A DNA stretch of 64,000 nt from an uncultured bacterium (GCA_964524145.1 CAZGCA010000018.1:7087-71086); one strand, 5' to 3'; positions 7,249 through 24,935 are shown, counted from the first letter of the stretch. The notes: a model not told the origin generated them from the letters alone. Translations and numbers: made by a program.

Positions 7249-7298
7249 TACCGTCCACCATTTGGGCGGCCAGAAGTCCCTTATCGGTGGCGGTGTCT

Positions 7299-7590
7299 CC
7301 GTATGTGCGCGTGTCGCCAATTACATGAGACTCGCAACCTACTGTTGCCCCGGCGATTATGGCCTCACTGCAACACGGCAGCCGTTTCGTAAGTGCACGG
7401 TAAGTGCCAGAAGTAGCGGGAAATCGAGACATTTCTGGCGTATTATGCACTGGCAATTATCCGGGTTAGGATAGGCCTCGGGCACACACGATGGGGCGCT
7501 CTGGGTTAAGCTAGAACCTTCACGTTGTCGCTCTATGTTTCGATTCCGAGCGCCGCGTTGATCACGAGCTGCACGTCTATCGCGTGCGTT
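7299..7590. repeat. Intergenic repeat family copy 1, ending in an orphan dockerin C-terminus on the minus strand
   Basis: Colinear similarity to 24646-24935 and 16902-17040 (ccgtatgtg..ccaatta..cgcaaccta.tgtt..gcagccRtttcgYaagtgcac..taagtgcca); 7583-7533 encodes AIDVQLVINAALGIET*. Confidence 0.85.
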
Positions 7591-7637
7591 GAGTTTCAGC
7601 ACATTTGGGACAGATGGACTACTGGCAGGTGGTGAGA

Positions 7638-7680
7638 GTTGGTAAGTCCTTCTGGGCTACGCCCTCCAGGACTTACCAAC
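7638..7680. repeat. Perfect 13-bp inverted repeat
   Basis: GTTGGTAAGTCCT-N17-AGGACTTACCAAC, with an inner GGGC-TAC-GCCC hairpin. Confidence 0.9.
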
Positions 7681-7730
7681 CGGTTCGGCTTCATGGTAGA
7701 GTGGAGCATCGAAGAGATATGGAGGTGACC

Positions 7731-7820
7731 ATGAAGCAGGAAGCAGAAGCAAGTGGGGTGAGACAGAGCAGTACTATCGCCAGAGAGGTCGTGAAGCAGC
7801 TGCGCGTGTTTATGGCGTGA
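7731..7820 (+). pseudogene. Short ORF with strong RBS, possibly a transposase N-terminal remnant
   Basis: GGAGGT RBS; MKQEAEASGVRQSSTIAREVVKQLRVFMA* loosely resembles N-termini of some IS4-like transposases (memory-based, weak). Confidence 0.25.
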
Positions 7821-8055
7821 TCCCCTCTGTACATGACCGCCCTCTATTCGCTAGAGTTGATTATATTACAGACTATACTGACAGCAAGCCAGAATTGCCC
7901 AGAGAGGTCGGACCTCGATTTACAAATGTGCGTCGTACGGGTTATAATTGCGCTGCTTGGGAACGTTGCTCGCCATATGCGGGCATAGCAACGAGGTGGA
8001 GTTTTCAGCGAGGGTTTGCGCCATGGACCCACGTCGGACGTACAGTCTCACCAAC

Positions 8056-11000
8056 ATGAGAAGACTTGGGTTGCTGTTCTCGATTCTAATCCTTGCCGGG
8101 GCGAGTTTCGCGGAACCGAACAACGTCATATATGTGGACATCGACGCCTCGGGCGGCGCCAACGATGGGAGTTCGTGGGAGAATGCGTTTCTTGATATAC
8201 AAAGGGGAATCAACGCCGCCAGAACCGCTGGTGGGCTTGAGGTATGGGTCGCAGAAGGCACCTACAAGCAAGCCATCGTCATGATGAGCGGCGTGCATCT
8301 CTACGGCGGCTTCAGCGGGGGGGAAGCGTTGCGGTCGGAAAGAGATACGATTCAACATCGGACTATACTGGATGCCGAGACCAACGCCCATGCGTTCTCG
8401 GGCGTGAGAGATGCGCGCCTTGACGGTCTTGTGATTTCTCGCGTTGACCCCTACGATAAGACTTCGGCGGCCGAACAGGGAGGGGGGCTGGCGTGTGCGT
8501 TCAGTTCATTCGCCATAGTGGACTGCGAGTTCTCGAACCTTTCAGGTGGCGGCGCCGCCGCCATTGACATGACAGACAGTTCCTCATTGGTGGTGGTCGA
8601 CTGCAAGTTTCTCGATAACTACGGCTACAGTGGCGCCGTCACAGTGGCGGCGAACTGCTCTCTTACGGTTCGCGACAGCGTATTCTTCAAGAACACGGCA
8701 TACTACGGCTATGGCGAGGGAGGCGGCGCAATAAAGACATCCGGATCCTTGGATTTGCTGTGCTGTGTGTTCCTTGAAAACGACGGCGAAGCCGGAGGCG
8801 CGATTCATGTCAAGAACGGCACGGCGCTCATCAAGGGAAGCGAATTCTGGAGAAACCTGGCGCACTTCTCCACGGGCGCGGAAGGCGGCGCCGTGTTCGT
8901 TGACAGGGGGGATGCGACTGTCGCCGATAGTGTGTTTGTTGAGAACGAAGCCGGGGGATACTGGGACGGGGGGGGCGCGCTTGTGTGCCAGTACTCGAAC
9001 TCCTTCAATTACGGGAACGTGTCGCTCCACGGTTGCGCGTTCTTCGGGAACGGTTCGGGGGGAGGGCTGGCCGGGGCCGTTTACATTGGGTCCGCGGATA
9101 ATGTAGTAGAGAACTGTCTGTTCGCGAGCAACGAATCGGCTGCGTTGTATATATCGAAGGCCACGGAGATAGTGAATTGCACATTCGACGGCAACACGTT
9201 GGGGTCCCCGGGTGGTAGCGGCCTTTCGTTGAATGAGAGTCCTTCGACGGTGAGAAACTGCATTATCTGGGATAACGCGATGACAGGAGGTTCCGCAGCC
9301 AACATCAGTTACTGCGACATTGAGGGTGGATATCCCGGTATAGGGCACCAAGATGCCAACCCAAGTTTTGCAAGCGGCCCGGCAGGCACCGCTCAGACTA
9401 TTACATATGACTCGGATGCCTTCCTCACAGAGATTACGGATTCCCTTGCAAGCCTTACTCCTAGCGCCATGGCCGGAAAGGTTGTACGTGTCGGATCCCT
9501 CGACCAGCACTACTACGTCATCAAGAACAACACCACCACTTCGATTTCGGTCTGGGGTGATGCCACGGAAGGTGGTTCTGTTTCGGCACCCCAAGTCTAC
9601 GAGGTGCTTGACTTCCACCTCTCAGCCAGTTCCCCGTGCGTCGACACGGGAACAGACAGCGGGGCCCCGTCCCTCGACCTCGACGGCAATACGAGGCCGT
9701 GGGGCGCGGCAACCGATATCGGCGCCTACGAATACGCCTCGTCGCCACCGGCCAACGTCGCTCCCGACACCCCCTCGAACAACTCACCCCCGGACGGCGC
9801 TACAAACGCCTCGCTCACGCCGATCGTCTCATGCTCGGGTTTCTCGGATCCCGACGCGGGAGACACACATGTAGGCTCTCACTGGCAAATCCGAGAAACG
9901 ACAAATCCCGGCGACTATTCCGTCAATACATTCGATTCGGTGGAAACCCACGTCGACATAGAATCCATTAGGGTGCCCCCGGGACTTCTGAGCTACGCAA
10001 CGTCCTACGCCTGGCGTGTTCGCCATCGGGACAATCATGCAGCGTGGAGTCAATGGTCAAGCGAGACCCTGTTCACTGTGGCGGCCGAGAGCCAAGTGAC
10101 GGCGGTACCAGCGGTCCCGAGAAATGCCGAGCCGGCTGACGGCCGGACGGTATCTACTCTGACGCCGATTCTTCAGTCTTCGGCCTACAACGATCCCACG
10201 GCCGCCACGACGCATCTAGCATCGCAGTGGCAGGTCAGGGAAGTCACAAGTCCGCCTGATTACTCGGCGCCGGTTTATGATTCCGGCGTCTCCTTCGGCG
10301 ACCTCACGTCGCTGCTGATTCCGGGGGGATTGCTCCAGTACAACACGGCCTACGCTTGGCGTGTGCGTTACATGGCCAGCAACGGCAAGTGGGGACCGTG
10401 GTCTCGCGAAACGATTTTCGTCGTGGAGCCGGGGAGCGGACTGGCGGTCATCTTTGTGGACGCAGATGCCACGAATGGCGCCAACAACGGCAGCTCGTGG
10501 CAGAATGCTTATATTGACCTGACCTTGGCCGTTACCGCCGCCTCCGGTCCGGGCGCCGAAGTCTGGGTCGCCGAAGGTACCTACTTGGAATTCATAACCC
10601 TCACAGACGGCGTGCATTTGTATGGCGGCTTTGCTGGGGGTGAGACGCTGCGCTCGCAGAGAGATTGGGATTTGCATCCCACGATCATTGATGGTTCGAC
10701 GGCAAACGATGGCTCGCCGGCCCCGCATGTCGTGGTGTGTGGGGGCGCCAATGCGACGCTCGACGGCTTCACGATCACCGGGGCGGCGGGCGGTTCGCCG
10801 GCGGGCGGCGGCGTATACGGCTCGATCGCTTCCCTTCGCGTGTCCAACTGTTTGCTGACCGAAAACTCTGCAAGCACCGGCTCGGGCGTCTATTCGGCTG
10901 ACACTTCTTCAGTGGAAATCCTCAACTGTCGCTTCTTGCGTAATCTCGGAAGCTCTGCTGTCTATTCAGACACCAATAGTGTGCTCACCGTGTCGAATAG

Positions 11001-14000
11001 CGTTTTCTTTGAAAACACAGGCAGCGGCTCCGGCGGCGGTGTCTACGCGCACTCCACGGTTCGCATCGTGCAGTGTGTGTTCATGGGCAATGACGCGACC
11101 TATGGCGGAGCGGTGAATGTGTCCGGCGGAACAGGTCTTATCGCCCGCAGCGTCTTTGCGGACAATTTGACTCATTACTCGACTGGTTGCGGTGGAGGCT
11201 CGATAAGTTCGAGTGGGACTATCAATATCCAACAGTGCGTCTTTGTCGGGAACGAGACTGAGTACGGTTCTGGCGGCGCCATTTCCGTCTCTGGCAACCT
11301 GTCATTGTGCGATTCGGTTTTCGTTGCCAATCGCGCACCGGGAACGACGAGTTCTGGGTATGGCGGCGCAATCAGGATCACGTCTGACAACAATCGAATA
11401 TGGAACTGCATCTTCACTCAGAACTACGCCCGTACTTCGGGGGCCGTCATCTACTCCTCCTATGTAAATGATTTGATAGAAATCGCCAACTGCACTCTGG
11501 ATAGCAATTTCAACTCGGCCGGGTTCAGCGGCATCGACTGTGCGTACGACCCACATGCTAGCGCTAGTATCCGGAACTCGATCATTTGGGCCTCGGGAGT
11601 ATTAGAGTTCTCTGGCGGCGAAGTGACATATTGCGACGTAGAAGGAGGATACGACGGCGTTGGAAACATCGACTCGGAACCCAGCTTCGACAGCGGACGA
11701 GCGGGCACGGCTCAAACCCTCACCTACGACTCGGATAACCTCTTAACCACACTGTTCGATCCTTTTGCCGATCTTGTCCCTGGCGCGCTGGCTGGAGAAG
11801 TGGTACAAATTGGGGCCGTGAGCCCCGAGTTTTTCGTCGTCCAGGATAACGCAGCAACATCCCTAGTTGTCTGGGGGGACGCCGCACGAAGCGTTCCGAC
11901 AATCTACGTGGTTCTCGAGTATGGTCTGGCCTCCTCCTCGCCCTGCATCGACACAGGAACCGAGCAGGGAGCGCCCACCGTGGATTTTGACGGAAACGTC
12001 AGAACATTGGACGGAGGGGTCGACATCGGGGCTTACGAGTACGGCGCTGCCCCGCCTTCTCCCAATGCGCCGGCTACTCCGAGCAACGTGACGCCGTCGG
12101 AGGGTGAAACCGGGGTTCCCCGCTCGCCGACGCTCCAGGGAACGGCCTTCTCCGATCCCGACCCGGGCAACACACACCTCGCGTCCCATTGGCAAATCAG
12201 AGCGTCTAACAGACCTTCGGATTACTCGGTCCTCGCTTTCGATTCGGGCAAGACGACCACCTTCCTTGAGTCCATCGAGGTCCCACCGGGCAGATTGGTC
12301 TACAACTACTCCTATTATTGGAGGGTGCGCTACCTGGACCATTATGGAACGTGGAGCGAGTGGTCTGCGGAGTCTCAGTTCTTCACCCAGGGCGCTCCCG
12401 GCAATGTGCCGGATCAGCCGACGAACATTTCTCCATCGAACGGCGCGACGGACGTTTCGCTGACTCCGACGCTCACCTCCTCGGCGTTCAGCGATCGGGA
12501 TGCGGGCGACACGCACGAGGCGTCGCGGTGGCAGGTGCGTGAATCATTGAGCTCGTCGGATTATTCGACGACGGTGTTCGATTCGGGAACGGACGCGACG
12601 AACTTGACGTCACTGGCAATTTCGCCCTCGACGCTCGCCGGCAACACATCGTACTCCTGGCGCGTGCGGTATCAGGACTCGGCGGGCGCCTGGAGTGCAT
12701 GGAGCGTGGAGACCGCGTTCACTACGATTGAGCACGATTCCCCGGTGATTACAACCAACAACGGCCAAGATTTCACTACGAGTGAGCCGAATCTCACGCT
12801 CGAGGGCACGTGTGACGCGGCCACGAACGAGATTCGGGTGAACGACTCAACGTCTGGTGTGACGTATACCCCGGGCGCGACGACGTGGTCCTATACGTGC
12901 ATCTTGGTGGAAGGTGCAAACACATTCTCAGTAGTTGCGGTTGATGCCGTGAGCAGTATTTCGTCACCGGCCACCGTTACTATCACACTCGACACGGCGG
13001 CTCTGAATCCGCCGGTGATCACGACGAACGGTGGCAACGACTACGCGACTAATCAGTCGGCGCTGGCACTTGAGGGCACGTGTTCGTCTGACACGGCAGA
13101 GCTCCGTGTGAATGGTTCAACCTCGGGTGTGGACTATGCCCCGGGCGCGACGACATGGTCGTATTCGGTGACCTTGGCAGAGGGAGACAACCACTTCTCG
13201 GTTGTGGCGTATGATGCTGGAGAACACCCCTCAGTTGCAGATATGATCGCTGTGACGTTGGACAAAACGCTGCCGATCATTTCGCTCTTGGGTAATGATG
13301 AAGAGACGATAGGGGTAGGCGAAGAATATGTGGATGCAGGTGCGACAGGATGGGACAACTACGATGGTGACTTGACGGAGAGCATCGTCACGGTTAATCC
13401 AGTGAACACGTCGGAGGCCGGCGACTACATGGTCAGCTACAACGTGAGCGATTCGGCGGGCAACCAAGCGAAGGAGGTGACGCGCCCAGTTCATGTAATC
13501 GAATCGGGCATAACGCCACCGGAAATAGAGCTACAGCCCGACGCACCGACGACCCTCGATGACCTAGTATGCCTTGTGACTGTGCCAAGTACGACTCTTC
13601 CAGGCCGCATGACGTTGTACGAGTATACGTGGACGAACGGCACCGCTACTTTGGTCAGTGGCCCTAAACGAGCCCTGCTCGACGCGCTTGATGCGACACT
13701 GACCATGAAAGGCGACACCTGGACCTGCACGGTACGCTGTCTGGACGGTGTTGGAGAATCTGATCCTGTCGAGGCTCAAACCGTTATCGTTAATTCCCTA
13801 CCGGAACCGCCAGTACTCTCATTCCCGTCGCAAGAAAGTGATCGAAAGAACCTGTATTGCATTGTTGTGGAACCGAGCTATGATGCAGACGGGGACGAGT
13901 GTACTTACGCTTTCGAGTGGTGGTACATCGTGGCGGGAGAAACCACTGCTGTGGAGTTTCGCTCTGACTGGGTGAACTATGACGACGCGTTCACCAGTTG

Positions 14001-16752
14001 GATAGACCGGAGCTTCACTGAGGAGCGTGACAAATGGTATTGCATTGTCACTCCGAATGACGGTACGAGCGATGGAACATCGGCGACAACTGACGAATGC
14101 CAGATCACCGCAATTGGCGACACTCCATCCTCCATAAGCTGTTCGGTTGAACCAGCAAGCATACAACTCGGCCAATCTGTCACCATCTCGGGCATGATTG
14201 AGGCTGTGAACTTCTGGGGAACCTTCGTTTCGTTCAACAGCACTATGCCGTCCGGCGAAGAGCGAGGAAATCATCCTCAGGCGGTTCCGGTTCCGGGCAA
14301 CAGCAATGATTACAGCAAGGTATTCTATCCCCACGCGGCGTCTGAGGACGAGGCACCATGGGAGCTAACAGCATCTTGGATCGGGGACAATGTTTACGCT
14401 GGCGCTGAAAGTGACCCGGTCAGCTTTGAGGTCACAAAAGCCCCAACAAGCCTGTCTTTGGAGCTGTCTGCGTCATCTGTACCGATGAATTTCGCGAGGT
14501 TGACGGCAACGGCAAAGCTGACCGCGCCGTTACCGGACGAATTGTCCAGCTTGCTGACGGGGATAGAAGTGAATCTGTATGTCAAGCTGCCAGACGGTAG
14601 CGCGCCGAATGGTATGCCACTCGTCGCCAAGACCAACGCGCAAGGTGTTGCAACGTTTACACCATTGCACTTTACGGATGCGGGCGTTACGTTCAGTACT
14701 GCTGGGACGTGGAAATGTGTGGTCGAGTTTGAAGAGGACAGGAACTTCTTGCAGAGCACTTCGCTTGGGGAGTCAGGTTGGTTGACGGTCAAAGACCGGG
14801 CGGGCTACGCCGTCCTTGTGCTTGGTAGATTGGACGAAGACGGAGAAGGACTGCCAGAACATGCGAAGACACTGGATTTCGTGTACAGTGCATTCCGTGA
14901 ACGTGGATTTGCTGACGAGGACATCTACTACCTGCGCGGAGGACTTGAACAACCTTCCCCGTACATCGTTGTTGACGATACCGAGCCGACTGAGGAGGAT
15001 GTGCAACGGGCCATCGAGACATGGGCCGCCGATAAAATGAACGCGACATCCGCTCCGTTGTATGTCGTGTTGGTGGACCACGGCAAACGTGGGTCGTTTT
15101 TCGTTTACTCCGGCAGCTATGGCGAGTCCCGCGAGATTACCTCTGCGGAACTAGGGCGCAGTTTCGATAGGCTACAGGACAACCTGGACGGCGAGGCACA
15201 GGACGAGAAGATCGTGTTAGTCTATGGCGCTTGCCACTCAGGGAGTTTCATCCCGACGGTCTCCGGCGAGCACCGCGTGATCATCACCAGCACGACAGAG
15301 GACGAGGTGTCGCACCGCGGCGTAATCGACCCGGACGACCTGATACGGGACGGCGAGGTATTCGTCACAGAATTCTTCCGGAACGCACGGGAAGGCAAGA
15401 ATCTCAAAAGATCGTTCGAAATAGCCACTGCCCAGACGTGGGAGTATACAGCAACTGACACGAGCGCCGGCAGATCGAGCTGGGGCCAACATCCTCTGTT
15501 GGACGACAACGGCGATGGTCTAGGCACGGGTGAATGGCTTTCGACTCAGCCAGGGGAAGACGGTAGTCTTGCCCATGAGCTGGTACTTGGGTATGGGTTT
15601 AACGTGGGCGATTCCACTGGCTGGCTGACCGTAACGCCTACTGTCAGCCTTGGCCCTGATGACCCAGTTCCTCTCCTGGAAGCTAAAGTTACACAGAGTC
15701 CGGCCATAGGCCTCACGGCATGGATCGAGGTGAAAGCACCGTCCTATTGGGGTGCGTCGATCGTCGACGAGGACAATCCAGACTCGCAACATGTCGTAGA
15801 GATGGTGTCGTTGCCTTCGGACAATACTGATCCAGTGGATGGCATCTTCAGGTGGTCGGACTTTGGTGACACGTTCGATATGTCGGGCACGTACAAGGTC
15901 TTTTACTATGTCAAAGATGGCGCTACCGACGAAACCAGCACTTACATGCTAACGACAATCTATCGCCTCAAAGAGGAAACTAACCCTCCAGAGTCAGTGG
16001 CGCTTGTGTATCCAGATGACGGTGCGGAAGTGTATAGCACGACATTCTTTGCGTGGCAGGAAGCGCCCAATCCGGACGGTGACGCGTTCAGCTATCGGCT
16101 CGAGTTGGCGGAAGATCAGGATTTCACAGCCGGGTTGATCGTAAAAGAAGGTATCCTCGGGACGGTGGTACATCCTCGCGAGATCGACGATATCGTGGAT
16201 GGGCAGACCTACTACTGGCGGGTCGTATCTGTGGACGAGTACGGTGCAGCTTCTCAAGATGACTCCGTTCGCACGTTTTCGGTCAACAATGCCAACCCTG
16301 CGGTGCCGGGAGCAGTGATAGGCGTCATCACGGATGCCGACACAGGCGCTCCAATTGAGGGTGCAATCATCACGGTTACCCCCGGTCCAGCAACCTGCAC
16401 TTCCTCAAGTCAAGGAATCTATCTCGTCGTCGGCCTCGATGGGGGAAAGCAGTACACTGTCCGGGTCTTTATACCGGAATCCCAAATTGAGAGCGATGCA
16501 CAGGTGCAGATACCTGCTGGCGGTCTGGTAGAAGCCAATTTCCAGTTGGAAGTTGCGGCAGCGGCGGGCGACCCTGATGTGAATGGTGACAACGGCGTCA
16601 ACGCCGTCGACGTCCAGCTTGTGATAAACGAGGCGCTTGGCATCAATACCGGCTACAACTGCAACATTGACGGTGCCGGGAACGTGAACGCCGTTGACGT
16701 CCAGCTTGTGATCAACGCGGCCCTCGGCATCGATATCTCCGGATCGTTCTAG
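8056..16752 (+). CDS. Giant secreted multidomain protein: 2x right-handed beta-helix/choice-of-anchor-Q, 4x FnIII-like, Ig-like, DUF5011, peptidase C13 (clan CD), FnIII, CarboxypepD_reg, C-terminal dockerin
   Basis: Signal peptide MRRLGLLFSILILAGASFA; GGAI beta-helix repeats and SPCVDTG..DIGAYEY twice; LYVVLVDHG and VYGACHSGSF dyad; DVNGDNGVNAVDVQLVINEALG..NAVDVQLVINAALG. Confidence 0.88.
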   Translation: MRRLGLLFSILILAGASFAEPNNVIYVDIDASGGANDGSSWENAFLDIQRGINAARTAGGLEVWVAEGTYKQAIVMMSGVHLYGGFSGGEALRSERDTIQHRTILDAETNAHAFSGVRDARLDGLVISRVDPYDKTSAAEQGGGLACAFSSFAIVDCEFSNLSGGGAAAIDMTDSSSLVVVDCKFLDNYGYSGAVTVAANCSLTVRDSVFFKNTAYYGYGEGGGAIKTSGSLDLLCCVFLENDGEAGGAIHVKNGTALIKGSEFWRNLAHFSTGAEGGAVFVDRGDATVADSVFVENEAGGYWDGGGALVCQYSNSFNYGNVSLHGCAFFGNGSGGGLAGAVYIGSADNVVENCLFASNESAALYISKATEIVNCTFDGNTLGSPGGSGLSLNESPSTVRNCIIWDNAMTGGSAANISYCDIEGGYPGIGHQDANPSFASGPAGTAQTITYDSDAFLTEITDSLASLTPSAMAGKVVRVGSLDQHYYVIKNNTTTSISVWGDATEGGSVSAPQVYEVLDFHLSASSPCVDTGTDSGAPSLDLDGNTRPWGAATDIGAYEYASSPPANVAPDTPSNNSPPDGATNASLTPIVSCSGFSDPDAGDTHVGSHWQIRETTNPGDYSVNTFDSVETHVDIESIRVPPGLLSYATSYAWRVRHRDNHAAWSQWSSETLFTVAAESQVTAVPAVPRNAEPADGRTVSTLTPILQSSAYNDPTAATTHLASQWQVREVTSPPDYSAPVYDSGVSFGDLTSLLIPGGLLQYNTAYAWRVRYMASNGKWGPWSRETIFVVEPGSGLAVIFVDADATNGANNGSSWQNAYIDLTLAVTAASGPGAEVWVAEGTYLEFITLTDGVHLYGGFAGGETLRSQRDWDLHPTIIDGSTANDGSPAPHVVVCGGANATLDGFTITGAAGGSPAGGGVYGSIASLRVSNCLLTENSASTGSGVYSADTSSVEILNCRFLRNLGSSAVYSDTNSVLTVSNSVFFENTGSGSGGGVYAHSTVRIVQCVFMGNDATYGGAVNVSGGTGLIARSVFADNLTHYSTGCGGGSISSSGTINIQQCVFVGNETEYGSGGAISVSGNLSLCDSVFVANRAPGTTSSGYGGAIRITSDNNRIWNCIFTQNYARTSGAVIYSSYVNDLIEIANCTLDSNFNSAGFSGIDCAYDPHASASIRNSIIWASGVLEFSGGEVTYCDVEGGYDGVGNIDSEPSFDSGRAGTAQTLTYDSDNLLTTLFDPFADLVPGALAGEVVQIGAVSPEFFVVQDNAATSLVVWGDAARSVPTIYVVLEYGLASSSPCIDTGTEQGAPTVDFDGNVRTLDGGVDIGAYEYGAAPPSPNAPATPSNVTPSEGETGVPRSPTLQGTAFSDPDPGNTHLASHWQIRASNRPSDYSVLAFDSGKTTTFLESIEVPPGRLVYNYSYYWRVRYLDHYGTWSEWSAESQFFTQGAPGNVPDQPTNISPSNGATDVSLTPTLTSSAFSDRDAGDTHEASRWQVRESLSSSDYSTTVFDSGTDATNLTSLAISPSTLAGNTSYSWRVRYQDSAGAWSAWSVETAFTTIEHDSPVITTNNGQDFTTSEPNLTLEGTCDAATNEIRVNDSTSGVTYTPGATTWSYTCILVEGANTFSVVAVDAVSSISSPATVTITLDTAALNPPVITTNGGNDYATNQSALALEGTCSSDTAELRVNGSTSGVDYAPGATTWSYSVTLAEGDNHFSVVAYDAGEHPSVADMIAVTLDKTLPIISLLGNDEETIGVGEEYVDAGATGWDNYDGDLTESIVTVNPVNTSEAGDYMVSYNVSDSAGNQAKEVTRPVHVIESGITPPEIELQPDAPTTLDDLVCLVTVPSTTLPGRMTLYEYTWTNGTATLVSGPKRALLDALDATLTMKGDTWTCTVRCLDGVGESDPVEAQTVIVNSLPEPPVLSFPSQESDRKNLYCIVVEPSYDADGDECTYAFEWWYIVAGETTAVEFRSDWVNYDDAFTSWIDRSFTEERDKWYCIVTPNDGTSDGTSATTDECQITAIGDTPSSISCSVEPASIQLGQSVTISGMIEAVNFWGTFVSFNSTMPSGEERGNHPQAVPVPGNSNDYSKVFYPHAASEDEAPWELTASWIGDNVYAGAESDPVSFEVTKAPTSLSLELSASSVPMNFARLTATAKLTAPLPDELSSLLTGIEVNLYVKLPDGSAPNGMPLVAKTNAQGVATFTPLHFTDAGVTFSTAGTWKCVVEFEEDRNFLQSTSLGESGWLTVKDRAGYAVLVLGRLDEDGEGLPEHAKTLDFVYSAFRERGFADEDIYYLRGGLEQPSPYIVVDDTEPTEEDVQRAIETWAADKMNATSAPLYVVLVDHGKRGSFFVYSGSYGESREITSAELGRSFDRLQDNLDGEAQDEKIVLVYGACHSGSFIPTVSGEHRVIITSTTEDEVSHRGVIDPDDLIRDGEVFVTEFFRNAREGKNLKRSFEIATAQTWEYTATDTSAGRSSWGQHPLLDDNGDGLGTGEWLSTQPGEDGSLAHELVLGYGFNVGDSTGWLTVTPTVSLGPDDPVPLLEAKVTQSPAIGLTAWIEVKAPSYWGASIVDEDNPDSQHVVEMVSLPSDNTDPVDGIFRWSDFGDTFDMSGTYKVFYYVKDGATDETSTYMLTTIYRLKEETNPPESVALVYPDDGAEVYSTTFFAWQEAPNPDGDAFSYRLELAEDQDFTAGLIVKEGILGTVVHPREIDDIVDGQTYYWRVVSVDEYGAASQDDSVRTFSVNNANPAVPGAVIGVITDADTGAPIEGAIITVTPGPATCTSSSQGIYLVVGLDGGKQYTVRVFIPESQIESDAQVQIPAGGLVEANFQLEVAAAAGDPDVNGDNGVNAVDVQLVINEALGINTGYNCNIDGAGNVNAVDVQLVINAALGIDISGSF

Positions 16753-16901: not shown

Positions 16902-17040
16902 CCGTATGTGGCATTGTTGCCTATTACTCTATCTTCGCACGCTACTGTCATACCGGCTACCAAGATTCTCTGGCACGGCTGCCGCCATTTCGTAAGTCCA
17001 CACTAAGTCCCAAAAGTAGGCGGAAATCGGGGGATTTTTG
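16902..17040. repeat. Intergenic repeat family copy 2 (partial)
   Basis: ccgtatgtggcattgttgcctatta...gccatttcgtaagtccacactaagtcccaaaagtaggcggaaatc aligns with copies 1 and 3. Confidence 0.75.
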
Positions 17041-17372
17041 AAAGGTCGTGGTGGGAGTTCTTCCCGCTGAGAAGACGTCTTCTTAACGATCGGCGGACTC
17101 GCATAATGGGGCATCTTGGGTCGAGTTGGAGCTATGGAACGGTCCAATTCGAGCCTGCTCGGGAATGTCTCCGAGAGGCTTTCCACAACGAATGAGAGAT
17201 GCTGTCTCTGGCCAAATGTGAAACATAGATACATGGCGTATACGGTGGCGTGGTCAAGGAGAGGCAGCATCCCCAGGACGGACGTGGTCGTTGATCAAGA
17301 CCAGTGCTCGTGTTATTATGCTTCCACTGGATAATGGACAACGTCAAACGTCGCCAAGGGAAGGACCAATTC

Positions 17373-20300
17373 ATGAAGCGCACAGTTCCTCTCATTGTAG
17401 TAACTTGTTGTCTAACCGTCGTGATCGTCTCTGCGGGCAGGTTTGCCGCACAGGTAACGGGCGACGTGAATGGGGACGGTTCTGTCAACGCACTTGACGT
17501 CCAGCTCACTATCAACGGGGCGTTGGGGATCGATATCGGCGGCCGTGACGCCGACATCAATGACGACGGGGCAGTGAACGCGCTTGACGTGCAGTTGTGC
17601 ATCAACGCGGCGCTGGGGATTACGAACGGTGGTTTACCTCCCGACCCGAAAGACGTGGCTCCCGACGTAGACCCGACAGTCCCGACGGATCTTGCCGATG
17701 CGACCGAATTCATCTACACGGGAGATGACCCCATCCAGACCGATGTGTCTCCGGGTGCTATCGAACCGACACGTGTCGTGGTAGTGCGCGGCAGGGTGGT
17801 GACGGTCGAAGGTAACCCTCTGCCTGGAGTACAGATTACTATCCTGAATCACCCGGAATACGGTCAGACGCTGACACGCGCGGACGGCATGTTTGACATG
17901 GCGGTGAACGGCGATGTGTTGGTCACGGTCAACTACTGGAAAGAAGATTATCTGAGTGCTCAACGTCAGGTGGACGTACCGGTGCAGGACTATGTATGGT
18001 TACCTGATGTGGTGCTTACGGTACTCGATCCCGAAGTTACCGTGATCGACTTCTCGGAGCCCGTGCAGGTAGCACGCGGCAGCGCGGTCGAGGACGAGGA
18101 CGGGTCTCGTCGGGCGACCCTGCTCGTCCCTCAAGGGGCAGGAGCGAAGATGAAGCTTGCGACGGGAAAGCGAAAAGAGCTCGACACAATGAGCGTGCGG
18201 GCGACTGAATACACCGTTGGAGAGAGCGGTCCTGCAGCTATGCCTGCATTTCTGCCGCCCGAGAGCGGTTACACGTACTGTGTGGAATACAGCGTGGATG
18301 AAGCGATTGATGCCGGCGCCGTCACGGTGGAGTTCGACGAAGCCGTCATCCACTATGTCGAGAATTTCCTCGATTTCCCGGTCGGAGGCAAAGTGCCGAC
18401 CGGCTATTACGACCGGGAGAAGGCAGTCTGGGTAGCGTCTCAGAACGGTCAAGTTGTTCAAATCGTGAGCATCACGGGCGAGATGGCCGACCTGGACATC
18501 GACGGCGACGGCGCGCCCGACAACGCTACAGACCTTGCCGATCTAGGTATCACCGATGAGGAACGACGACAGCTGGCATCGATCTACCAGCCCGGCCAGA
18601 GCGTGTGGCGTGTGCCGCTCACCCACTTCACCCCTTGGGACTGCAACTGGCCGTACGGACCTCCGGCTGATGCTAACGCGCCCGATCCGCTTCCCCCGGA
18701 CGATCAACCGGAAGAAGACGACTGTGAAGAATCGTCCGGCGGCGATGACGGCGGAGGTGGCGACGGCGGCGGACGCGGCGGGAGCCGAGGTTCGGGTTTC
18801 CGAGGTAGCAGCCAGGAACTGATCCACCGGATCCCGATTGTCGGTACTCCGTTTGCACTGCATTACCAGAGTAGCCGAGTTCCCGGCAACAGGAAAGCTT
18901 ATTCGACCGACATCCCGCTCAGCGGCGAGACTGTTCCCGGCAGCCTCAAGGGCATCGAGCTGGAAGTTGGCATTGCGGGACAGCGATTCACCGATAGCTT
19001 TGGTGCTGAAGCCGGGCAGAACAGTAGTTACGAGTGGGACGGTAAAGATGGCTACGGCCGTGATTTGAAAGGATCGGGGCCGGCCGACATTGGCATAGGC
19101 TACGTCTACGACGGGGTTTACATGGAGCCGGCAGAGTTCGAGGACTCTTTCGGTCGATTAGGTGAAGAGACCATCGTCGGCCGCGGGACACGAGACGAAA
19201 TCGTTCTATGGACCCACAGCCAGAGGATGCTCGGGATATTGACGGTACCGGGACCGGAAGCGCTTGGCGGATGGACCCTGAACGTCCACCACACCTATGA
19301 CACCGAGGCGCAGGTGCTGTACCGAGGGGATGGGAAAATACGAAAGGTCGAGGGGGAGGATGCCTCGGCCATAACCATTTTCGCCGGTGATCCCACGCAG
19401 GGATACTCTTCGGGCGAAGCCGGTGACGGCGGGCCGGCCACCGAGGCGCTTTTTAAGTTGGCCTACGCCGTAGAACTGGGACCGGACGGCAGCCTCTACA
19501 TTGCCGATCCGGGGTCGTTTGTCAACAGGATTCGCCGTGTGGGCCCGGACGGAATCATCACCACGGTAGCGGGTAAGGGCGGACGAGACGGCTTCAGCGG
19601 CGACGGGGGTCCCGCTACCGAGGCGGAATTCGCTCTCCCAAGGGCAATTGCCGTGGCGGACGACGGCAGCTTCTACATCGCGGACAGTGGGAATCAGAGG
19701 ATACGTCGTGTGGGACCGGATGGGATAGTCACCACCGTGGCGGGTACCGGCGAAATGGGATTCAGCGGCGACGGCGGCCCGGCAACCGAAGCGCAACTTA
19801 TGTATCCTACCGATGTTGAAATCGGGCCCGACGGCCTTCTGTATATCGCCGATCTTCTCCGCGTGCGTCGGGTGAGTTCCGACGGGATAATCACCACGGT
19901 GGTTGGTAACGGCACGGATGACTATGCAGGAGACGGTTCGCTTGCGACCGAAACGGGTATGTTGGGCTTCGGCATCGAGGTAGGACCCGACGGGAGCATA
20001 TGGATTGCCAATACTCCCGAACATTGTGTATCCCGTGTGAATCCCGACGGTATCATCAACAGAGTGGCGGGTGCAGGTGACGGACTCGACGGCTTCAGTG
20101 GCGACGGAGGCCCTGCAACTTCTGCCAAGCTGAAGAATCCGTGGGACATCTCGCTTGGGCCGGACGGCAGCCTGTATATCGCCGACGCCGACAATCAGCG
20201 TATCCGGCGCGTGAATCTGATGGGGATCATTAGGACGGTGGCGGGTAACGGCGAAGAGATATTCCTCCCGGACGATTTCTTGCGCGGTATGGGCGGCCCG

Positions 20301-23300
20301 GCGACCGAGGCACCCCTCTATTTTCCCATAGACGTTGTGGTGGGCCCGGACGGCACTTTTTACATCGCAGACTTCTCGGTCGTCCGCAGGGTGGCGCGCG
20401 CGCGTCAACAGGCCGTGATCAGCGAGGATGGTACCGAAGTGTACGAGTTCGACATCCATGGTCGTCATCTGCGGACTCTGAACGCGCTGACGTGCACACC
20501 CATTTACGCATTCGACTATGATGATGACGGTCTCTTGGCTCAGATCGAAGATAGAGATGGTCGTGTGACCACCGTCCAACGGGACGGAAACGGCGGTCCG
20601 ACAGCCATTGTGGCCCCTCTGGGGCAGCGTACCACGTTCACCCTGGATGCACAGGGCTGGCTTGCCACCGTCACCGATCCTGCTGGCCAAACTTACGAGA
20701 TCACGTACGACGGCACCGGCCTCATGACCGGGCTGACCGATCCCGCGGGCAATGAGTATGGCCATGAGTACGACGAGCAAGGTCTTCTCGTGGGTATCGA
20801 TGCGCCGGGTGGCGGCGGCAAGACGCTCGCGCGTACAGCAACGGAGAACGGCTACGAGGTGACGGTGACGACTGCCATAGGCCGTACGACCACATACGGA
20901 GTCGAGCATCTCCCGACCGGCGAGAAGCACATGGTGACCACCTTTGGCTGTTGCGGACAGGCCGAGGCGCTCATCGACGCGGACGGCAACATCGAGATAA
21001 CCTACGCCGATGGAACGGTGGTGACCGAGATGCTGGGGCCGGATCCGCGATGGGGCATGCAGGCCCCAATGGCGACTGAATGGACTATGACCACGCCGGA
21101 CGGCGTGCAGTATGTGCATAACGCCGAACGAACGGCCACGATGTCGGACTCTACCGGTCCGTTGTGCGGGGCGGGTTTGGTGGAGACGGTCGTTGTCAAC
21201 GGCCATGCTTACAGTCGTACGTATGACGCGGACCAGAGACTCAGGGCGACCGAATCGCCTCTCGGCCGGCGTCAGTTCACGTGGCTGGACGAACAGGGAC
21301 ACGTGGCAAAACTCCAGATCGGGGGCCTGGAACCGGTTGAATATGCCTACGACAGCAACGGGCGGCTTCAGACAGTAACAAATGCTCCCGGCCCCGATGC
21401 CCGGGTCTACCAGCTGAGCTACGATGCGAACGGATACCTTGAAAGTGTTACAGACCCGATGCAACGTACGGTCAGCTTCGGGTACGACTTCGCGGGTCGC
21501 GTGACTCGCCAGGTCAGCCCGGACGGCCGCGAGACACTGTACACCTACGACGAGAACGGGAATGTGACTTCGGTGACCCCGCCGGGCCGTCCATCGCACC
21601 AGTATGCGTACACGGCGACAGACCAGCAGGAGGACTACGTTCCTCCCGCCGTCGGTGCGGGCGCCACCCTGACCCATTATGACTACAACGTGGACGGTCA
21701 GATCGAGCTGGTCACGCGCCCGGACGGACAGACAGTCGACTTCGAATACAACGCGGCCGGACTCCTGGATCATATCGTCATGCCTCGTGGACAGGTCGAT
21801 TTCGCCTACGGGCCGGCCACGGGACAGGTCACCTCGGTCACGACACCGGAGGGAGACATCATATCGTTCGGCTGGGACGGCATTCTGCTCAAAGAAACAA
21901 GCTGGTCGGGAGACGTTGTGGGAAGTGTGGCCCGTACCTATAACAACGACTTGCGAGTTGCCGCTCTCAGCATAGATGATACGCACAGCATAGCGTTCGG
22001 CTATGATGACGACGGCCTGCTGGTCGGAGCAGGAGACATAACCCTGACACGCGACGCGCAGAACGGCTTTGTTGTAAGCACGACGCTCGACCAGATCGCC
22101 ACCATGCGAGGATACGACGGCTTCGGCCAGCTTACAGGCTATCGGGCCGAGTTCAGCGGCGCTCCGATATTCGAGACGGCCTACGTTCGGGACGCCATCA
22201 ACCGGATCACACAGAAGACCGAGACTATCGACGGTGTAACCACGGTTTACAGCTACGTTTATGATCAGGCTGGTCGGCTGACGGAGACCCTTCGGGACGG
22301 CGTGACCGCATCCATATACACGTACGACGATAACGGCAATCGCGCAACCCACACCGACGAGGATGCCGTGGTGACGACGGGTAGCTACGACAACCAGGAC
22401 CGCATGGTTCAGTACGGAAACACCACGTATACCTACACCGATAATGGCGAGCTGTTGACGAAGACCGAGACGGGCCAAGTCACGCACTACGACTACGACG
22501 TGATGGGTAACCTCCAAGCCGTCACCCTACCCGACGGGACACAGATTGACTACGTCATCGACGGACGTAATCGGAGGGTCGGCAAATCGGTTAACGGTTC
22601 ATTGGTTCAGGGCTTCCTTTATGTGGACAACCTCAACCCCGTAGCCGAGTTCGACGGCGCCAACAACGTCGTGAGCCTGTTCGTGTATGCCGGTCGTCCC
22701 AATGTGCCAGACTATATCGTCTCGAGAAAGGCGGATGGTGTTACGTGGGTCGCGTACCGGCTTGTCTGCGACCACCTGGGCAGTCCCCGGCTGGCTGTAG
22801 ATGCTGCAACCGGCCAGGTTGCGCAGCGTCTGGACTACGATGAATTCGGGAACGTCACTGACGACACCAATCCGGGGTTCCAACCATTTGGCTTTGCGGG
22901 AGGTCTCTACGACCGGCACACAGGACTTACCCGGTTTGGAGCCAGAGACTATGACGCCGCGACGGGACGGTGGACGGCAAAAGACCCGATCGGTTTCTCA
23001 GGAGGGGATACGAACCATTACGGCTACGTCTTGGGAGACCCGATTAACAGTATGGATAGCAGCGGCCGGCAAGCATCCGGGCCAGTCTGCAAAATCGAAG
23101 TTACGGTCGATCCCCCCGACCCGACAACAGAAGAAGGTTACGAGTACAAAGGAACGAGGGTTACCGTGGATGGAGAAGTGGTGTCGGGCAAGGATGTCCA
23201 TTTCCCGAGTGAAGGAGCCGCAAAAGTCCACTCGGTGACAATAATAGACAATCATCAGTTGGCGCACGACATCAAGATTACCCACATATACGGCAAGCCG

Positions 23301-23330
23301 GAGATCGTAATCGATTTCACAAGGAGATGA
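17373..23330 (+). CDS. Teneurin-like NHL/YD-repeat (Rhs) protein with N-terminal dockerin and short C-terminal payload
   Basis: Signal peptide; dockerin GDVNGDGSVNALDVQL..; carboxypeptidase-regulatory-like domain; FN-plug-like region; repeated GPDG..YIAD..RIRRV..GII.TVAG NHL blades; YD repeats; Rhs core PFGFAGGLYD..RFGARDYD...GRWTAKDPIG..YGYVLGDPINSMDSSG. Confidence 0.9.
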   Translation: MKRTVPLIVVTCCLTVVIVSAGRFAAQVTGDVNGDGSVNALDVQLTINGALGIDIGGRDADINDDGAVNALDVQLCINAALGITNGGLPPDPKDVAPDVDPTVPTDLADATEFIYTGDDPIQTDVSPGAIEPTRVVVVRGRVVTVEGNPLPGVQITILNHPEYGQTLTRADGMFDMAVNGDVLVTVNYWKEDYLSAQRQVDVPVQDYVWLPDVVLTVLDPEVTVIDFSEPVQVARGSAVEDEDGSRRATLLVPQGAGAKMKLATGKRKELDTMSVRATEYTVGESGPAAMPAFLPPESGYTYCVEYSVDEAIDAGAVTVEFDEAVIHYVENFLDFPVGGKVPTGYYDREKAVWVASQNGQVVQIVSITGEMADLDIDGDGAPDNATDLADLGITDEERRQLASIYQPGQSVWRVPLTHFTPWDCNWPYGPPADANAPDPLPPDDQPEEDDCEESSGGDDGGGGDGGGRGGSRGSGFRGSSQELIHRIPIVGTPFALHYQSSRVPGNRKAYSTDIPLSGETVPGSLKGIELEVGIAGQRFTDSFGAEAGQNSSYEWDGKDGYGRDLKGSGPADIGIGYVYDGVYMEPAEFEDSFGRLGEETIVGRGTRDEIVLWTHSQRMLGILTVPGPEALGGWTLNVHHTYDTEAQVLYRGDGKIRKVEGEDASAITIFAGDPTQGYSSGEAGDGGPATEALFKLAYAVELGPDGSLYIADPGSFVNRIRRVGPDGIITTVAGKGGRDGFSGDGGPATEAEFALPRAIAVADDGSFYIADSGNQRIRRVGPDGIVTTVAGTGEMGFSGDGGPATEAQLMYPTDVEIGPDGLLYIADLLRVRRVSSDGIITTVVGNGTDDYAGDGSLATETGMLGFGIEVGPDGSIWIANTPEHCVSRVNPDGIINRVAGAGDGLDGFSGDGGPATSAKLKNPWDISLGPDGSLYIADADNQRIRRVNLMGIIRTVAGNGEEIFLPDDFLRGMGGPATEAPLYFPIDVVVGPDGTFYIADFSVVRRVARARQQAVISEDGTEVYEFDIHGRHLRTLNALTCTPIYAFDYDDDGLLAQIEDRDGRVTTVQRDGNGGPTAIVAPLGQRTTFTLDAQGWLATVTDPAGQTYEITYDGTGLMTGLTDPAGNEYGHEYDEQGLLVGIDAPGGGGKTLARTATENGYEVTVTTAIGRTTTYGVEHLPTGEKHMVTTFGCCGQAEALIDADGNIEITYADGTVVTEMLGPDPRWGMQAPMATEWTMTTPDGVQYVHNAERTATMSDSTGPLCGAGLVETVVVNGHAYSRTYDADQRLRATESPLGRRQFTWLDEQGHVAKLQIGGLEPVEYAYDSNGRLQTVTNAPGPDARVYQLSYDANGYLESVTDPMQRTVSFGYDFAGRVTRQVSPDGRETLYTYDENGNVTSVTPPGRPSHQYAYTATDQQEDYVPPAVGAGATLTHYDYNVDGQIELVTRPDGQTVDFEYNAAGLLDHIVMPRGQVDFAYGPATGQVTSVTTPEGDIISFGWDGILLKETSWSGDVVGSVARTYNNDLRVAALSIDDTHSIAFGYDDDGLLVGAGDITLTRDAQNGFVVSTTLDQIATMRGYDGFGQLTGYRAEFSGAPIFETAYVRDAINRITQKTETIDGVTTVYSYVYDQAGRLTETLRDGVTASIYTYDDNGNRATHTDEDAVVTTGSYDNQDRMVQYGNTTYTYTDNGELLTKTETGQVTHYDYDVMGNLQAVTLPDGTQIDYVIDGRNRRVGKSVNGSLVQGFLYVDNLNPVAEFDGANNVVSLFVYAGRPNVPDYIVSRKADGVTWVAYRLVCDHLGSPRLAVDAATGQVAQRLDYDEFGNVTDDTNPGFQPFGFAGGLYDRHTGLTRFGARDYDAATGRWTAKDPIGFSGGDTNHYGYVLGDPINSMDSSGRQASGPVCKIEVTVDPPDPTTEEGYEYKGTRVTVDGEVVSGKDVHFPSEGAAKVHSVTIIDNHQLAHDIKITHIYGKPEIVIDFTRR

Positions 23331-23620
23331 AACCCGCCGCGGGGTCTATCGCGACCGTGGCCGGGGGACGGAGAGTCGTCCTTCCATAGCCAATTGGCCA
23401 TCGTCAGTCGTGCGGTCGGCTGACCTCGATCACAGTTGGCACAAGTGGGGTTCTGGGAAGAGGAGAGGCAGCGCTTCGGGGCCGGAACCTATCAGCTACT
23501 CCCCTTGAGGTGCCATCCTGCAACGGGATGGTCGGTACAGTGTTCATCGAGGAACGTGCCGCTTTCTTTTTCAATGGACGTGGGCCGCCTCAAAGAGGGT
23601 CCATCACAACAGAATCGGCG

Positions 23621-23649
23621 TTGACAGAATCGGCACGGGCGACTACAAT
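23621..23649 (+). promoter_or_regulatory. sigma70 promoter of the DUF1080 gene
   Basis: TTGACA-N17-TACAAT. Confidence 0.7.
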
Positions 23650-23726
23650 GCCAGGAGATGAGCCTGCGGCGGTCGCAGGCGGGTCTATGTGGGAAACCTC
23701 GGATAGCATCACAGGAGAAACGAAAC

Positions 23727-24416
23727 ATGAAGCGCATGCTCAGCCTCTTGATCGCTTTCGGCTTCGTGTCGTTGGGAAGTATGGCCGAGGGTTCGGAGAC
23801 GAAACCCGCCGCGGGCAGTGAGTCCAAGCCCACCGAGGCGCAGGACAGCGAGACCATTGCCCTGTTCAACGGGAAGAGTTTCGACGGCTGGCAAATGCAT
23901 CTAAAGGATTCGGATGTCGATCCGAAGGACGTATGGGAGATCCGGGACGGCGCGATATGGTGCAAAGGGGAGCCCTTCGGCTATATGCGCACGAAGAAAG
24001 AGTACAGCGATTTCAAACTCGTCGTTGAATGGCGATGGCCTGAGAAGCCCAGCAACAGCGGTGTCTTGCTGCGGATTAGTGGCGAAGACAAAGTCTGGCC
24101 ACTCTGCATGGAAGCGCAGCTTATGCACAGACGTGCCGGCGATTTCGTCGGAATGGGCTGCTCATTCAATGAGAACACGAGTCCCGAGGGCGAGTTGTTC
24201 CGCTACGCGCCGCGCCAACACCGCACCAACGAAAAGAAACCCGGCGCCTGGAACACGTACGAGATCACCTGCAAAGGCGATACCGTCGAGTTGACCGTCA
24301 ACGGCCAACACCAGAACAAGGCGACCGGTGTGAGCGTTCGCCGGGGGTACATCGGTCTCCAGAGCGAAGGCTCCCCTATCATGTTTAGGAACGTCAAGCT
24401 GACGCCTCTCCGCTGA
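23727..24416 (+). CDS. Secreted DUF1080 (3-keto-disaccharide hydrolase family) protein
   Basis: Signal peptide; LFNGKSFDGW, YSDFKLVVEWRW, NSGV, GAWNTYEI, GYIGLQSEG..FRNVKL. Confidence 0.92.
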   Translation: MKRMLSLLIAFGFVSLGSMAEGSETKPAAGSESKPTEAQDSETIALFNGKSFDGWQMHLKDSDVDPKDVWEIRDGAIWCKGEPFGYMRTKKEYSDFKLVVEWRWPEKPSNSGVLLRISGEDKVWPLCMEAQLMHRRAGDFVGMGCSFNENTSPEGELFRYAPRQHRTNEKKPGAWNTYEITCKGDTVELTVNGQHQNKATGVSVRRGYIGLQSEGSPIMFRNVKLTPLR

Positions 24417-24427
24417 ACTCGATACGG

Positions 24428-24556
24428 ATTCCCGCCGAAGGGTGCGCTGCAGGGAAGGTTCCCAATCTTGACGACCAACCCACCGAGTAGTACGAACTGC
24501 GCGGTTGGAATAAGGACGGGAAGCCGACGAAAGAGAAGCCTGAAGAACCCGCTCTC
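24428..24556 (+). pseudogene. C-terminal remnant of an aldehyde:ferredoxin oxidoreductase
   Basis: Hand translation IPAEGCAAGKVPNLDDQPTE*YELRGWNKDGKPTKEKPEEPAL matches the AOR tail EYYxLRGWDxxGxPTxEKL. Confidence 0.6.
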
Positions 24557-24645
24557 CATGACTCTGCAGCCAGGCTCTATTGAGCCGCGACATATGCACT
24601 TCGGTTTTCGGTGTCGTGAATGAGTAGTAACAGAAGACATACAAA

Positions 24646-24935
24646 CCATATGTGCGCATGTTGCCAATTAGGGGAGAGACGCAACCTATTGTTGAACCGA
24701 TGGTTCCAGAGCTACGGCAACGCAGCAGCCATTTCGCAAGTGCACAATAAGTGCCAAGATCACCCGGAATTCAGGGCGTTTTCGGCGGGTTATGCATTCA
24801 CAATTATCCGGATTAGGACAGGCCGCGGGCGCACGCGATGTGACGCTCTGGTTGAAGTCAGAACCTTAGTCCTCGTCGCTCTAGATCTCGATGCCAAGCG
24901 CGGCGTTTATGACGAGTTGGACATCGAGCGCGTTA
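24646..24935. repeat. Intergenic repeat family copy 3, ending in an orphan dockerin C-terminus on the minus strand
   Basis: Colinear with 7299-7590 over its full length; 24934-24881 encodes VNALDVQLVINAALGIEI*. Confidence 0.85.

Follow-up and report, generated by a model that had tools for sequence, protein, structure and literature searches.

A family of intergenic repeats, designated R1, was identified in a 64,000-nucleotide (nt) stretch of DNA from an uncultured bacterium (the window, meaning this whole stretch) and throughout the genome to which it belongs. R1 is non-coding, lies directly behind the stop codons of dockerin-tailed genes or of their remnants, and has diverged less than the neighboring silent sites. 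Our best explanation, for which we put the chances for and against about level, is that R1 is a selected non-coding module of the gene end (3′ flank) of dockerin-tailed exoprotein genes and acts there in cis. The window comes from contig C18 of a 5.74-Mb metagenome-assembled genome (149 contigs, 58% G+C; completeness 96.5%, contamination 3.5%), and marine-sediment and subsurface metagenomes contain DNA of the source organism.

An earlier reading of the window from its sequence alone (the sequence-only reading) had described three copies of a repeat in the same orientation, each with two direct boxes spaced by 11 bp. Alignment, repeat finding, and profile search together placed the three copies at 7298–7585, 16902–17144, and 24646–24933; the repeat finder returned copies 1 and 3 as a 222-nt pair with 74% identity (family D4). 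The boxes occur as YAAGTSC-N4-YAAGTSC in each copy (at 16993–17010 in copy 2; Table 1 for the others), and these were the only three matches to the pattern in the 64-kb window, with 0.00 expected from 100 shuffles. The imperfect inverted repeat said to follow the boxes was also present, with a sequence specific to each copy (GCCAGAA..TTCTGGC, CCAAAA..TTTTTG, and GCCAAGA..TTTTCGGC), and the copies do bracket two giant genes. As for the extents of the copies, the start coordinates held, but copy 2 runs approximately 100 nt further than had been proposed (to ~17144), with lower similarity, and in copies 1 and 3 the terminal ~55 nt proved to be reverse-strand remnants of dockerin repeats that lie outside the non-coding repeat. 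Copy 2 is the most diverged of the three and has no dockerin tail.

When the source genome was searched with BLAST and with a profile built from 11 copies, on which all R1 positions given here are counted, a dispersed family of approximately 28 copies tied to dockerin-tagged genes was obtained (E < 1e-8). About 15 of the 28 are full length, with pairwise identities of 70–88% and only one near-identical pair, and a few additional fragments retain the right end only. The profile placed copies in same-orientation clusters on contigs C18, C23, C84, C104, and C70. R1 was not found in 40 related genomes searched with BLAST, the closest of which belongs merely to the same class, or in 135 genomes of the phylum searched with the profile, in which a lone match (E = 0.0096) was at chance level; exact-pattern scans of the GTDB species set gave three isolated matches, also at chance level. 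Full-length matches in the JGI metagenomes came mostly from the same population (98–100% identity), one of them being an additional copy missing from the assembly, and the remaining matches there were fragments at chance level. Judged from these searches, R1 appears to be lineage specific. A limited literature search found no published description of such an element beside dockerin or giant genes.

Pairwise similarity among the copies begins between positions −17 and +3 and stops near +288, but the non-coding unit comprises positions 1 to ~235 (~235 nt), where nearly all copies have stops in each of the six frames. The alignment contains very few indels, and near-invariant runs recur at fixed distances with variable spacers between them. 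These blocks of 8–20 bases include the 7+4+7 direct repeat, and the conserved runs read CCGTATGTGCG, CCATTTCGTAAGTGCAC..TAAGTGCCAAAA, GGAAATCGGGG, ATTATCCGGATTAGGATAGGC, and GATGAGGCGCTCTGG. Conservation within the family is highest at the boxes. The left arm (positions 13–85) occurs in two types, A and B, and a motif of the GGAAACACAAAG type stands directly before position 1 in approximately 14 of 26 copies. A 29-codon open reading frame (ORF; MCxCC...AIS, then stop) is preceded by GAGGA, and its TAA falls within box 1; however, R1 was rejected as a small protein-coding gene, as this frame is uninterrupted in just 15 of 28 copies, about half of them, and the entropies of the three codon positions (0.95, 0.97, and 0.96) show no codon periodicity. 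A candidate sigma-54 promoter at positions 70–85 was also discarded, since inspection of the alignment by eye gave good matches in two copies only.

The right end of R1 adjoins a gene end. A stop codon on the opposite strand lies 0–4 nt from it, positions 236–238 being CTA, the reverse complement of a TAG stop. Four intact ORFs on the opposite strand end at R1 positions 229–239 (Table 1), and dockerin remnants do likewise, so that the position of R1 relative to the stop codon is constant. A third giant dockerin gene on C23 (2246 amino acids [aa]) reads on into R1 as far as position 144; on that contig, three giant genes stand in tandem, with R1 between each pair. Most of the other full-length copies, including copies 1 and 3 of the window, are joined to a reverse-strand remnant ending in DVQLVINAALGIEI and a stop codon. 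In such remnants, for example those ending in IDVQLVINAALGIET and LDVQLVINAALGIEI, again before the stop, one dockerin repeat and sometimes two are left, and the gene that should precede them is missing. Roughly counted, 19 profile matches cover both the R1 core and the tail (~19 of ~44 such gene ends), whereas 25 dockerin-only matches with the stop at the same relative position have no R1; the genome holds 58 further dockerin-repeat matches. Besides the dockerin giants, the only recurring flanking family was a LacI-family regulator, at three copies, which is probably a chance association.

The orphan tails, of which there are about 11, consist of 20–25 codons joined to R1, and still vary as coding sequences do: their entropies at the third, second, and first codon positions are 1.09, 0.43, and 0.47 bits. 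This concentration of variation at third positions indicates that the tails are what is left of different genes that once functioned, and that they did not arise by amplification of a single orphan. The tails of copies 1 and 3 are 79–85% complementary to real dockerin repeats of the neighboring genes (43–49 nt); for copy 1, these are the repeats at 16688–16733 and 17578–17620.

To what extent R1 is constrained was seen in a comparison of the intact giant dockerin genes of C100 with those of C23, for which random identity is 28%. In the ~480 codons before the dockerin, aa identity was 12–33% and third-position identity 15–46%, scattered around the random value; the dockerins shared 52–64% of aa and 50–58% of third positions; R1 itself was 74–79% identical, and even its most variable arm reached 64–74%. 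In other words, the piece made up of the last dockerin repeats, the stop codon, and R1 is common to genes whose bodies just upstream are otherwise unrelated, and within this piece R1 has diverged less than the neighboring synonymous sites. As a fallback, the sequence-only reading had offered a passively duplicated 3′ flank. This description comes closest to the anatomy, but because R1 changes more slowly than the adjacent silent sites, it must be regarded as constrained, and a passive duplicate is not an adequate account of it.

R1 copies also bear traces of recombination. Copy 2 and the copy on C26 are 100% identical over positions 1–108, although their left flanks are unrelated. Conversely, the left flank of copy 3 is shared with C4 over 576 nt at 98.8% identity, whereas the R1 units joined to it are of different types (type B on C4) and the identity ends at R1 positions 1–3. 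The duplicated segment of ~590 nt (24054–24645 in the window and C4:28432–29007) thus ends in both places at the first R1 bases; it contains the 3′ part of a 3-keto-disaccharide hydrolase gene and intergenic DNA. From these alignments, the left edge of R1 was the recombination junction in two recent events. Moreover, over the middle and right segments, type-B copies are closest to type-A copies, and the left-arm types combine freely with these segments; therefore, R1 copies exchange segments. To this extent, namely a left edge used as a junction and arms that are mosaic between copies, the suggestion of a recombination site stood, and the part that did not stand concerns the features of an attachment site or transposon described below. 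The simplest source of the "graveyards" of gene fragments is ectopic recombination in dockerin repeats, because the tails break inside the dockerin repeat, the sole sequence common to dozens of genes; the graveyards may well have originated in this way.

We propose that R1 belongs mainly to a subfamily of secreted-protein genes that end in a C-terminal type I dockerin, and occasionally to other genes, and that it would be inherited and exchanged together with the dockerin tail. It would be held by selection on its primary sequence rather than on base-pairing. Most copies are orphans, which would have been left behind as a tail plus R1 when the gene body was recombined away with a breakpoint inside a dockerin repeat, and the R1 copies themselves would serve as dispersed homology, with recent exchanges stopping exactly at the left edge. 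R1 might then act as the untranslated 3′ end of the mRNA, as a protein-bound site at the gene end, or as both, the direct repeats being the putative binding site of a sequence-specific protein. We favor a cis role at the gene end over an attachment site, a transposon, or a free-standing RNA gene because R1 lies 0–4 nt from the stop, is of constant length with an abrupt distal boundary, and is conserved in primary sequence at fixed spacing. The window copies would bracket the two giant genes because the region is rich in such gene ends, and no evidence was found that they delimit a mobile cassette.

Several points weigh against this explanation. Gene conversion limited to R1 could mimic selection, because all of the comparisons are between paralogues within one genome, and the intact blocks found in orphans fit recent orphaning and a function independent of the gene equally well. 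Three metatranscriptomes from the same or related samples hold no contig from the locus, although the organism is possibly too rare in them. Neither a promoter nor an intrinsic terminator occurs at a conserved R1 position in the three window copies, and covariation was not detected, though a functional RNA in a 3′ untranslated region would often show some. Finally, copy 2 follows a dockerin gene of the plus strand at a distance of 150 nt but is oriented the opposite way, and no gene adjoins it on the right; therefore, the order gene, stop, R1 is not universal among the copies.

The strongest rival, which we nevertheless consider unlikely, takes R1 to be a site of recombination or attachment, or else a non-autonomous mobile element, whose TAAGTSC repeats are bound by a recombinase or transposase acting in trans that moves R1 or the cassettes between its copies. 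The discrete left terminus used as a junction in two recent events would suit such an element, as would the restriction of the family to one lineage and its same-orientation clusters on several contigs, among other repeats, gene fragments, and fragments of tyrosine recombinases. Some truncated copies break at or beside the boxes (C8 at 109, C104 at 99, and C84 starting at 103), but over the family the truncation points are scattered (99, 109, 147–151, 164, 188, 209, and 217) and leave no complementary halves. The sequence-only reading had proposed an element of this kind; however, R1 has no terminal inverted repeats, no inverted partner of the boxes within ±800–1100 nt, no significant flanking repeat, and no half-sites. 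The terminal hexamer GTTGTC is repeated in the left flank of 3 of 26 copies, but in an unbiased test these direct repeats, suggestive in three to five copies, reached p < 0.01 in only 1 of 26, and GTTGTC was dropped as an attachment core. The low identity among copies, with a single near-identical pair, indicates no recent burst, and tails that have diverged as coding sequence are contrary to the amplification of one mobile unit of R1 and tail. Excision circles between copies, which had been suggested as a sign of mobility, were not seen: contigs of four DNA metagenomes show neither skip nor circle joints at R1. The sole joint that "goes back" has a 35-nt side inside a dockerin repeat, as expected from the tandem two-repeat dockerin of another gene.

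Nor was a recombinase consistently associated with R1. The genome contains Xer-like genes and fragments, but recombinases are near only two or three R1 copies, and tyrosine recombinases were located at a distance of a few kb from just two, a phage-type integrase on C53 and a cluster of three on C7. The latter trio (C7:47335–50485) consists of consecutive tyrosine-recombinase genes of 408, 316, and 332 aa and lies 4–5 kb from one R1 copy and one copy of another repeat family, R2 (see below). At least seven scattered fragments, on C44, C66, C95, C54, C101, C114, and C7, match only the C-terminal 50–75 residues of integron- or Xer-type tyrosine recombinases. The best score for the integron integrase model TIGR02249 was 94 bits against a cut-off of 265; as the genome is 96.5% complete, the absence of IntI is likely. 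An integron attC or attI site was rejected because the two R1 ends lack complementarity (TCCGTATG... versus ...CGTTGTC), no more hairpin pairing occurs than in controls, and the edges AAAG/TCCG and GTTGTC/GCT do not fit GTTRRRY. A phage attP, or that of an integrative and conjugative element, would have direct repeats as R1 does, but there is no integrase consistently nearby and there are no complementary halves.

The copy on C26 is interrupted at the TA of box 2 by an IS630-family element that has two TAAGT boxes in its terminal repeat, TAAGTGCACCGATTCGTAAGTACGG. The similarity of the R1 boxes to this repeat was not significant (p = 0.065), and with no inverted partner present, an IS630-derived miniature inverted-repeat transposable element (MITE) was rejected; the insertion sequence had merely inserted at a TA. 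The right end of this element (transposase C-terminus plus terminal repeat) was found at C26:64116–64398 and C135:1–283; because these are two contig ends, the element is probably multi-copy and collapsed in the assembly. More generally, MITEs of DDE transposons (IS630/Tc1) were excluded, as R1 has no terminal inverted repeats and its flanks share no TA duplication, and so was an IS200/IS605-type element, since the five bases directly before R1 differ among copies (CAAAG, CACAA, GTGTC, ATGCC, and others). Although most truncated copies retain the left end, left-truncated copies exist too, R1 does not resemble the intron locus, and the tails have diverged as coding DNA, so that retroposition was dismissed as well; the sole reverse transcriptase of the genome is a group II intron maturase-reverse transcriptase (RVT_1 + GIIM) at C41:50275–51615, a contig end.

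A rather more doubtful alternative is that R1 is a platform for a transcription factor, its 7+4+7 repeat binding a winged-helix response regulator of the OmpR/PhoB type that controls the neighboring gene. Sites of this type have the same 7+4+7 geometry with an 11-bp period, the boxes are the most conserved part of R1, conservation lies in sequence and not in pairing, and the three window copies are all 160–750 nt upstream of plus-strand genes or operons. Over the genome, however, no rule of orientation or distance to gene starts emerged: 19 of 27 copies lie within ~650 nt of one, against ~75% expected for an intergenic site. R1 consistently adjoins gene ends rather than gene starts. Sigma-70-type promoters do not occur at a constant spacing from the boxes, and none is near them in the three window copies; the giant gene has a promoter-like site of its own 520 nt further on. 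A two-box site would also leave 235 nt of constrained sequence unexplained.

We regard as less probable again a bolder version of the gene-end explanation, according to which the dockerin tail, stop codon, and R1 together would form a portable gene-end cassette whose end-pieces are grafted and exchanged by a dedicated box-binding protein, or the orphan tails would be transcribed as antisense RNAs acting on a dockerin regulon. If so, grafting would tag proteins for the cohesin–dockerin surface complex, the orphans would be spent or reserve end-pieces, and either variant would be an undescribed way of building and regulating a bacterial secretome.

The least probable of the rivals is that R1 is an RNA gene, giving either a structured small RNA or a plus-strand transcript whose tail is antisense to many dockerin mRNAs. 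Its consensus does hold several short inverted repeats, and in the right half, one-sided changes mostly preserve G-U pairs on the plus strand (helices 5 and 7); taken over the whole unit, though, the wobble asymmetry (G-U versus A-C) indicates opposite strands in the left and right halves. A structured non-coding RNA had been put forward in the sequence-only reading, but R1 matched nothing in Rfam, ribozymes included, even at E = 10. The alignment did not yield covariation above controls, its score being equaled by 26 of 500 shuffles. Five hand-picked helices had 82.7% paired cells, against 81.3% in shuffles, and 7 double-change pairs against 6.1, a number equaled by 196 of 500 shuffles. Folding z-scores were weak (plus strand, −0.71; minus strand, −1.08), and RNAalifold, applied to both strands, lent no support, with a consensus of −10 kcal/mol and a covariation term of −0.32 kcal/mol. 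The complementarity of orphan tails to real dockerin repeats would suit an antisense role, but the periodicity of the tails is more simply explained by past coding. A terminator-like hairpin at 7570–7588 closes copy 1; it does not recur in copies 2 and 3, no promoter precedes position 1, and the metatranscriptomes mentioned above, with the same reservation about the rarity of the organism, hold no RNA from the locus.

Table 1. Coordinates of R1 copies and associated features in the window, and intact genes elsewhere in the genome that end at R1
Feature	Location	Strand	Details
R1 copy 1, non-coding core, type-A left arm	7298–7532	+	Profile positions 1–235, E = 9.7e-89; alignments
Copy 1 boxes, TAAGTGC-ACGG-TAAGTGC (7+4+7, 11-bp period)	7390–7407	+	Pattern scan
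Copy 1 orphan dockerin tail, ending in THAIDVQLVINAALGIET and stop	7533–7589	−	Stop codon 7533–7535; translation
Giant secreted protein gene, 2934 codons from TTG	7948–16752	+	C-terminal type I dockerin 16576–16740; Pfam Dockerin_1
R1 copy 2	16902–17144	+	Profile positions 2–232; boxes TAAGTCC at 16993 and 17004
Rhs/teneurin-like protein gene, 2008 codons	17304–23330	+	Pfam RHS_repeat, TEN_YD-shell, Dockerin_1
Left-junction motif TAACAGAAGACATACAA before copy 3, class I, consensus GGAAACACAAAG	24628–24644	+	
R1 copy 3, non-coding core	24646–24880	+	Profile E = 3.4e-84; boxes 24737–24754
Copy 3 orphan dockerin tail, ending in WDRFVNALDVQLVINAALGIEI and stop	24881–24949	−	Stop codon 24881–24883; repeat finding, translation
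Giant dockerin protein, 3016 aa	C100	Opposite to R1	Ends at R1
Giant dockerin protein, 2980 aa	C23	Opposite to R1	Ends at R1
GH2-type glycosidase, 860 aa	C132	Opposite to R1	Ends at R1
DUF1318 protein, 244 aa	C70	Opposite to R1	Ends at R1

Some further features of the window adjoin these copies. The first giant gene has a strong sigma-70-like promoter at 7919–7948 (TTTACA, 18-nt spacer, TATAAT; 11 of 12 matches), and because this site overlaps the listed TTG, the real start is probably the ATG at ~8057, which is followed by a signal-peptide-like MRRLGLLFSILILAGASFA. The copy 1 tail (7540–7585) and the last dockerin repeat of this gene (16688–16733) form a 46-nt, 85%-complementary inverted repeat that encloses the entire 9.1-kb gene; an inversion between them would put R1 copy 1 behind the gene, its usual position. 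In the second giant gene, which encodes the Rhs/teneurin-like protein, the dockerin is N-terminal (nt 17463–17630; Pfam and repeat family D2). An exact-protein look-up for the gene adjoining copy 3 returned no record.

Other repeat families were found next to R1. R2, with five to eight copies, lies directly to the right of copy 1 (7588–7753) and elsewhere on C74 (two copies), C7, C110, and C101. Its long hairpin, GGTAAGTCC...GGACTTACC, has a stem that covaries among copies (TCGTAAGCCC...GGGCTTACGA) and a 19-nt interior that is inverted on C74; downstream of the hairpin come GGAGG, ATG, and a conserved MKQEAEA start, after which similarity among the copies is lost. A truncated tyrosine-recombinase gene adjoins a piece of R2 on C101. 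R3 (~130 nt) occurs in the window at 23494–23567 and on C59 (three times), C1, C74, C23, and C78, and directly precedes R1 on C74 and C23. With its nested hairpins (GGCGGCACG...CGTGCCGC, CATCC..GGATG, and GTTC..GAAC) and a GC stem followed by a T-run at its end, R3 looks like a small structured RNA or terminator module; it had no Rfam match at E ≤ 1 except one at chance level. The left flank of the R1 copy on C132 (~1210–1390) is a repeat of ~175 nt with ~80 BLAST matches genome-wide. The source genome is rich in distinct intergenic repeat families, often adjoining one another.

It is uncommon for 235 nt of bacterial non-coding DNA to be steadier than silent sites, at fixed spacing and with no detectable RNA structure, and such constraint points to a function in a nucleoprotein or at the mRNA end. 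R1 is tied to the ends of giant secreted-protein genes that carry the dockerin "plug" of a non-cellulosomal cohesin–dockerin system, and the many orphan pieces of tail and R1 suggest that dockerin repeats are recombination hot spots that remodel the secretome. If R1 controls mRNA ends, expression, or exchange, it would offer a handle on the assembly and diversification of surface complexes in uncultured sediment bacteria; if it has no such control, it would be merely another lineage-specific family of intergenic repeats.

Among known systems, the pho box (OmpR/PhoB) shares with R1 two 7-bp direct repeats with a 4-bp gap and an 11-bp period, but in R1 no promoter stands where one would be needed, and the copies are not associated with gene starts. 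MITEs of the IS630/Tc1-mariner group (Correia, RUP, and Nezha) are similar to R1 in size class and copy number, whereas the ends of R1 have neither terminal inverted repeats nor a TA duplication. A lambda-type attP likewise measures ~240 bp, with direct repeats in helical phase and several conserved blocks whose spacing is fixed; in contrast to it, R1 lacks inverted core sites around an overlap, attL- or attR-like halves, and an adjacent integrase, and sits at full length in 15 chromosomal places. Integron attC sites, including the repeats of Vibrio integrons (VCRs), follow ORFs directly, stand in same-orientation series, and have a junction at their distal edge, all as in R1, and the conserved short motif that starts the next unit in ~14 of 26 R1 copies is also attC-like. 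However, R1 has neither the R″/L″–L′/R′ imperfect hairpin nor the GTTRRRY edge core, no IntI was found, its units reach 9 kb, and it occurs in both orientations relative to neighboring intact genes.

The closest known parallel in layout is found in Neisseria, where the Sma/Cla repeat stands behind pilE and behind silent, 5′-truncated pilS copies, and the pilin loci recombine with one another. Like R1, this is a conserved non-coding repeat behind the coding ends of surface proteins, and the pilS loci, partial copies without a promoter in which the 3′ coding end and the repeat persist, resemble the R1 orphans. The orphan tails of R1, however, are 20–25 codons of a constant domain with no variation to donate; R1 is about four times longer, shows no evident recombination-initiating element or variation system, and also follows non-dockerin genes (GH2 and DUF1318). 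In general kind, R1 is closest to REP/BIME, ERIC, and the pneumococcal BOX elements, which are also present in tens of non-coding intergenic copies, often after stop codons, and which are modular or mosaic, lineage specific, and for the most part without a known function. They differ in being palindromes that are conserved as hairpins, whereas R1 has neither structure-driven conservation nor folding stability; instead, R1 is long, keeps a fixed spacing, and is tied to one type of gene end.

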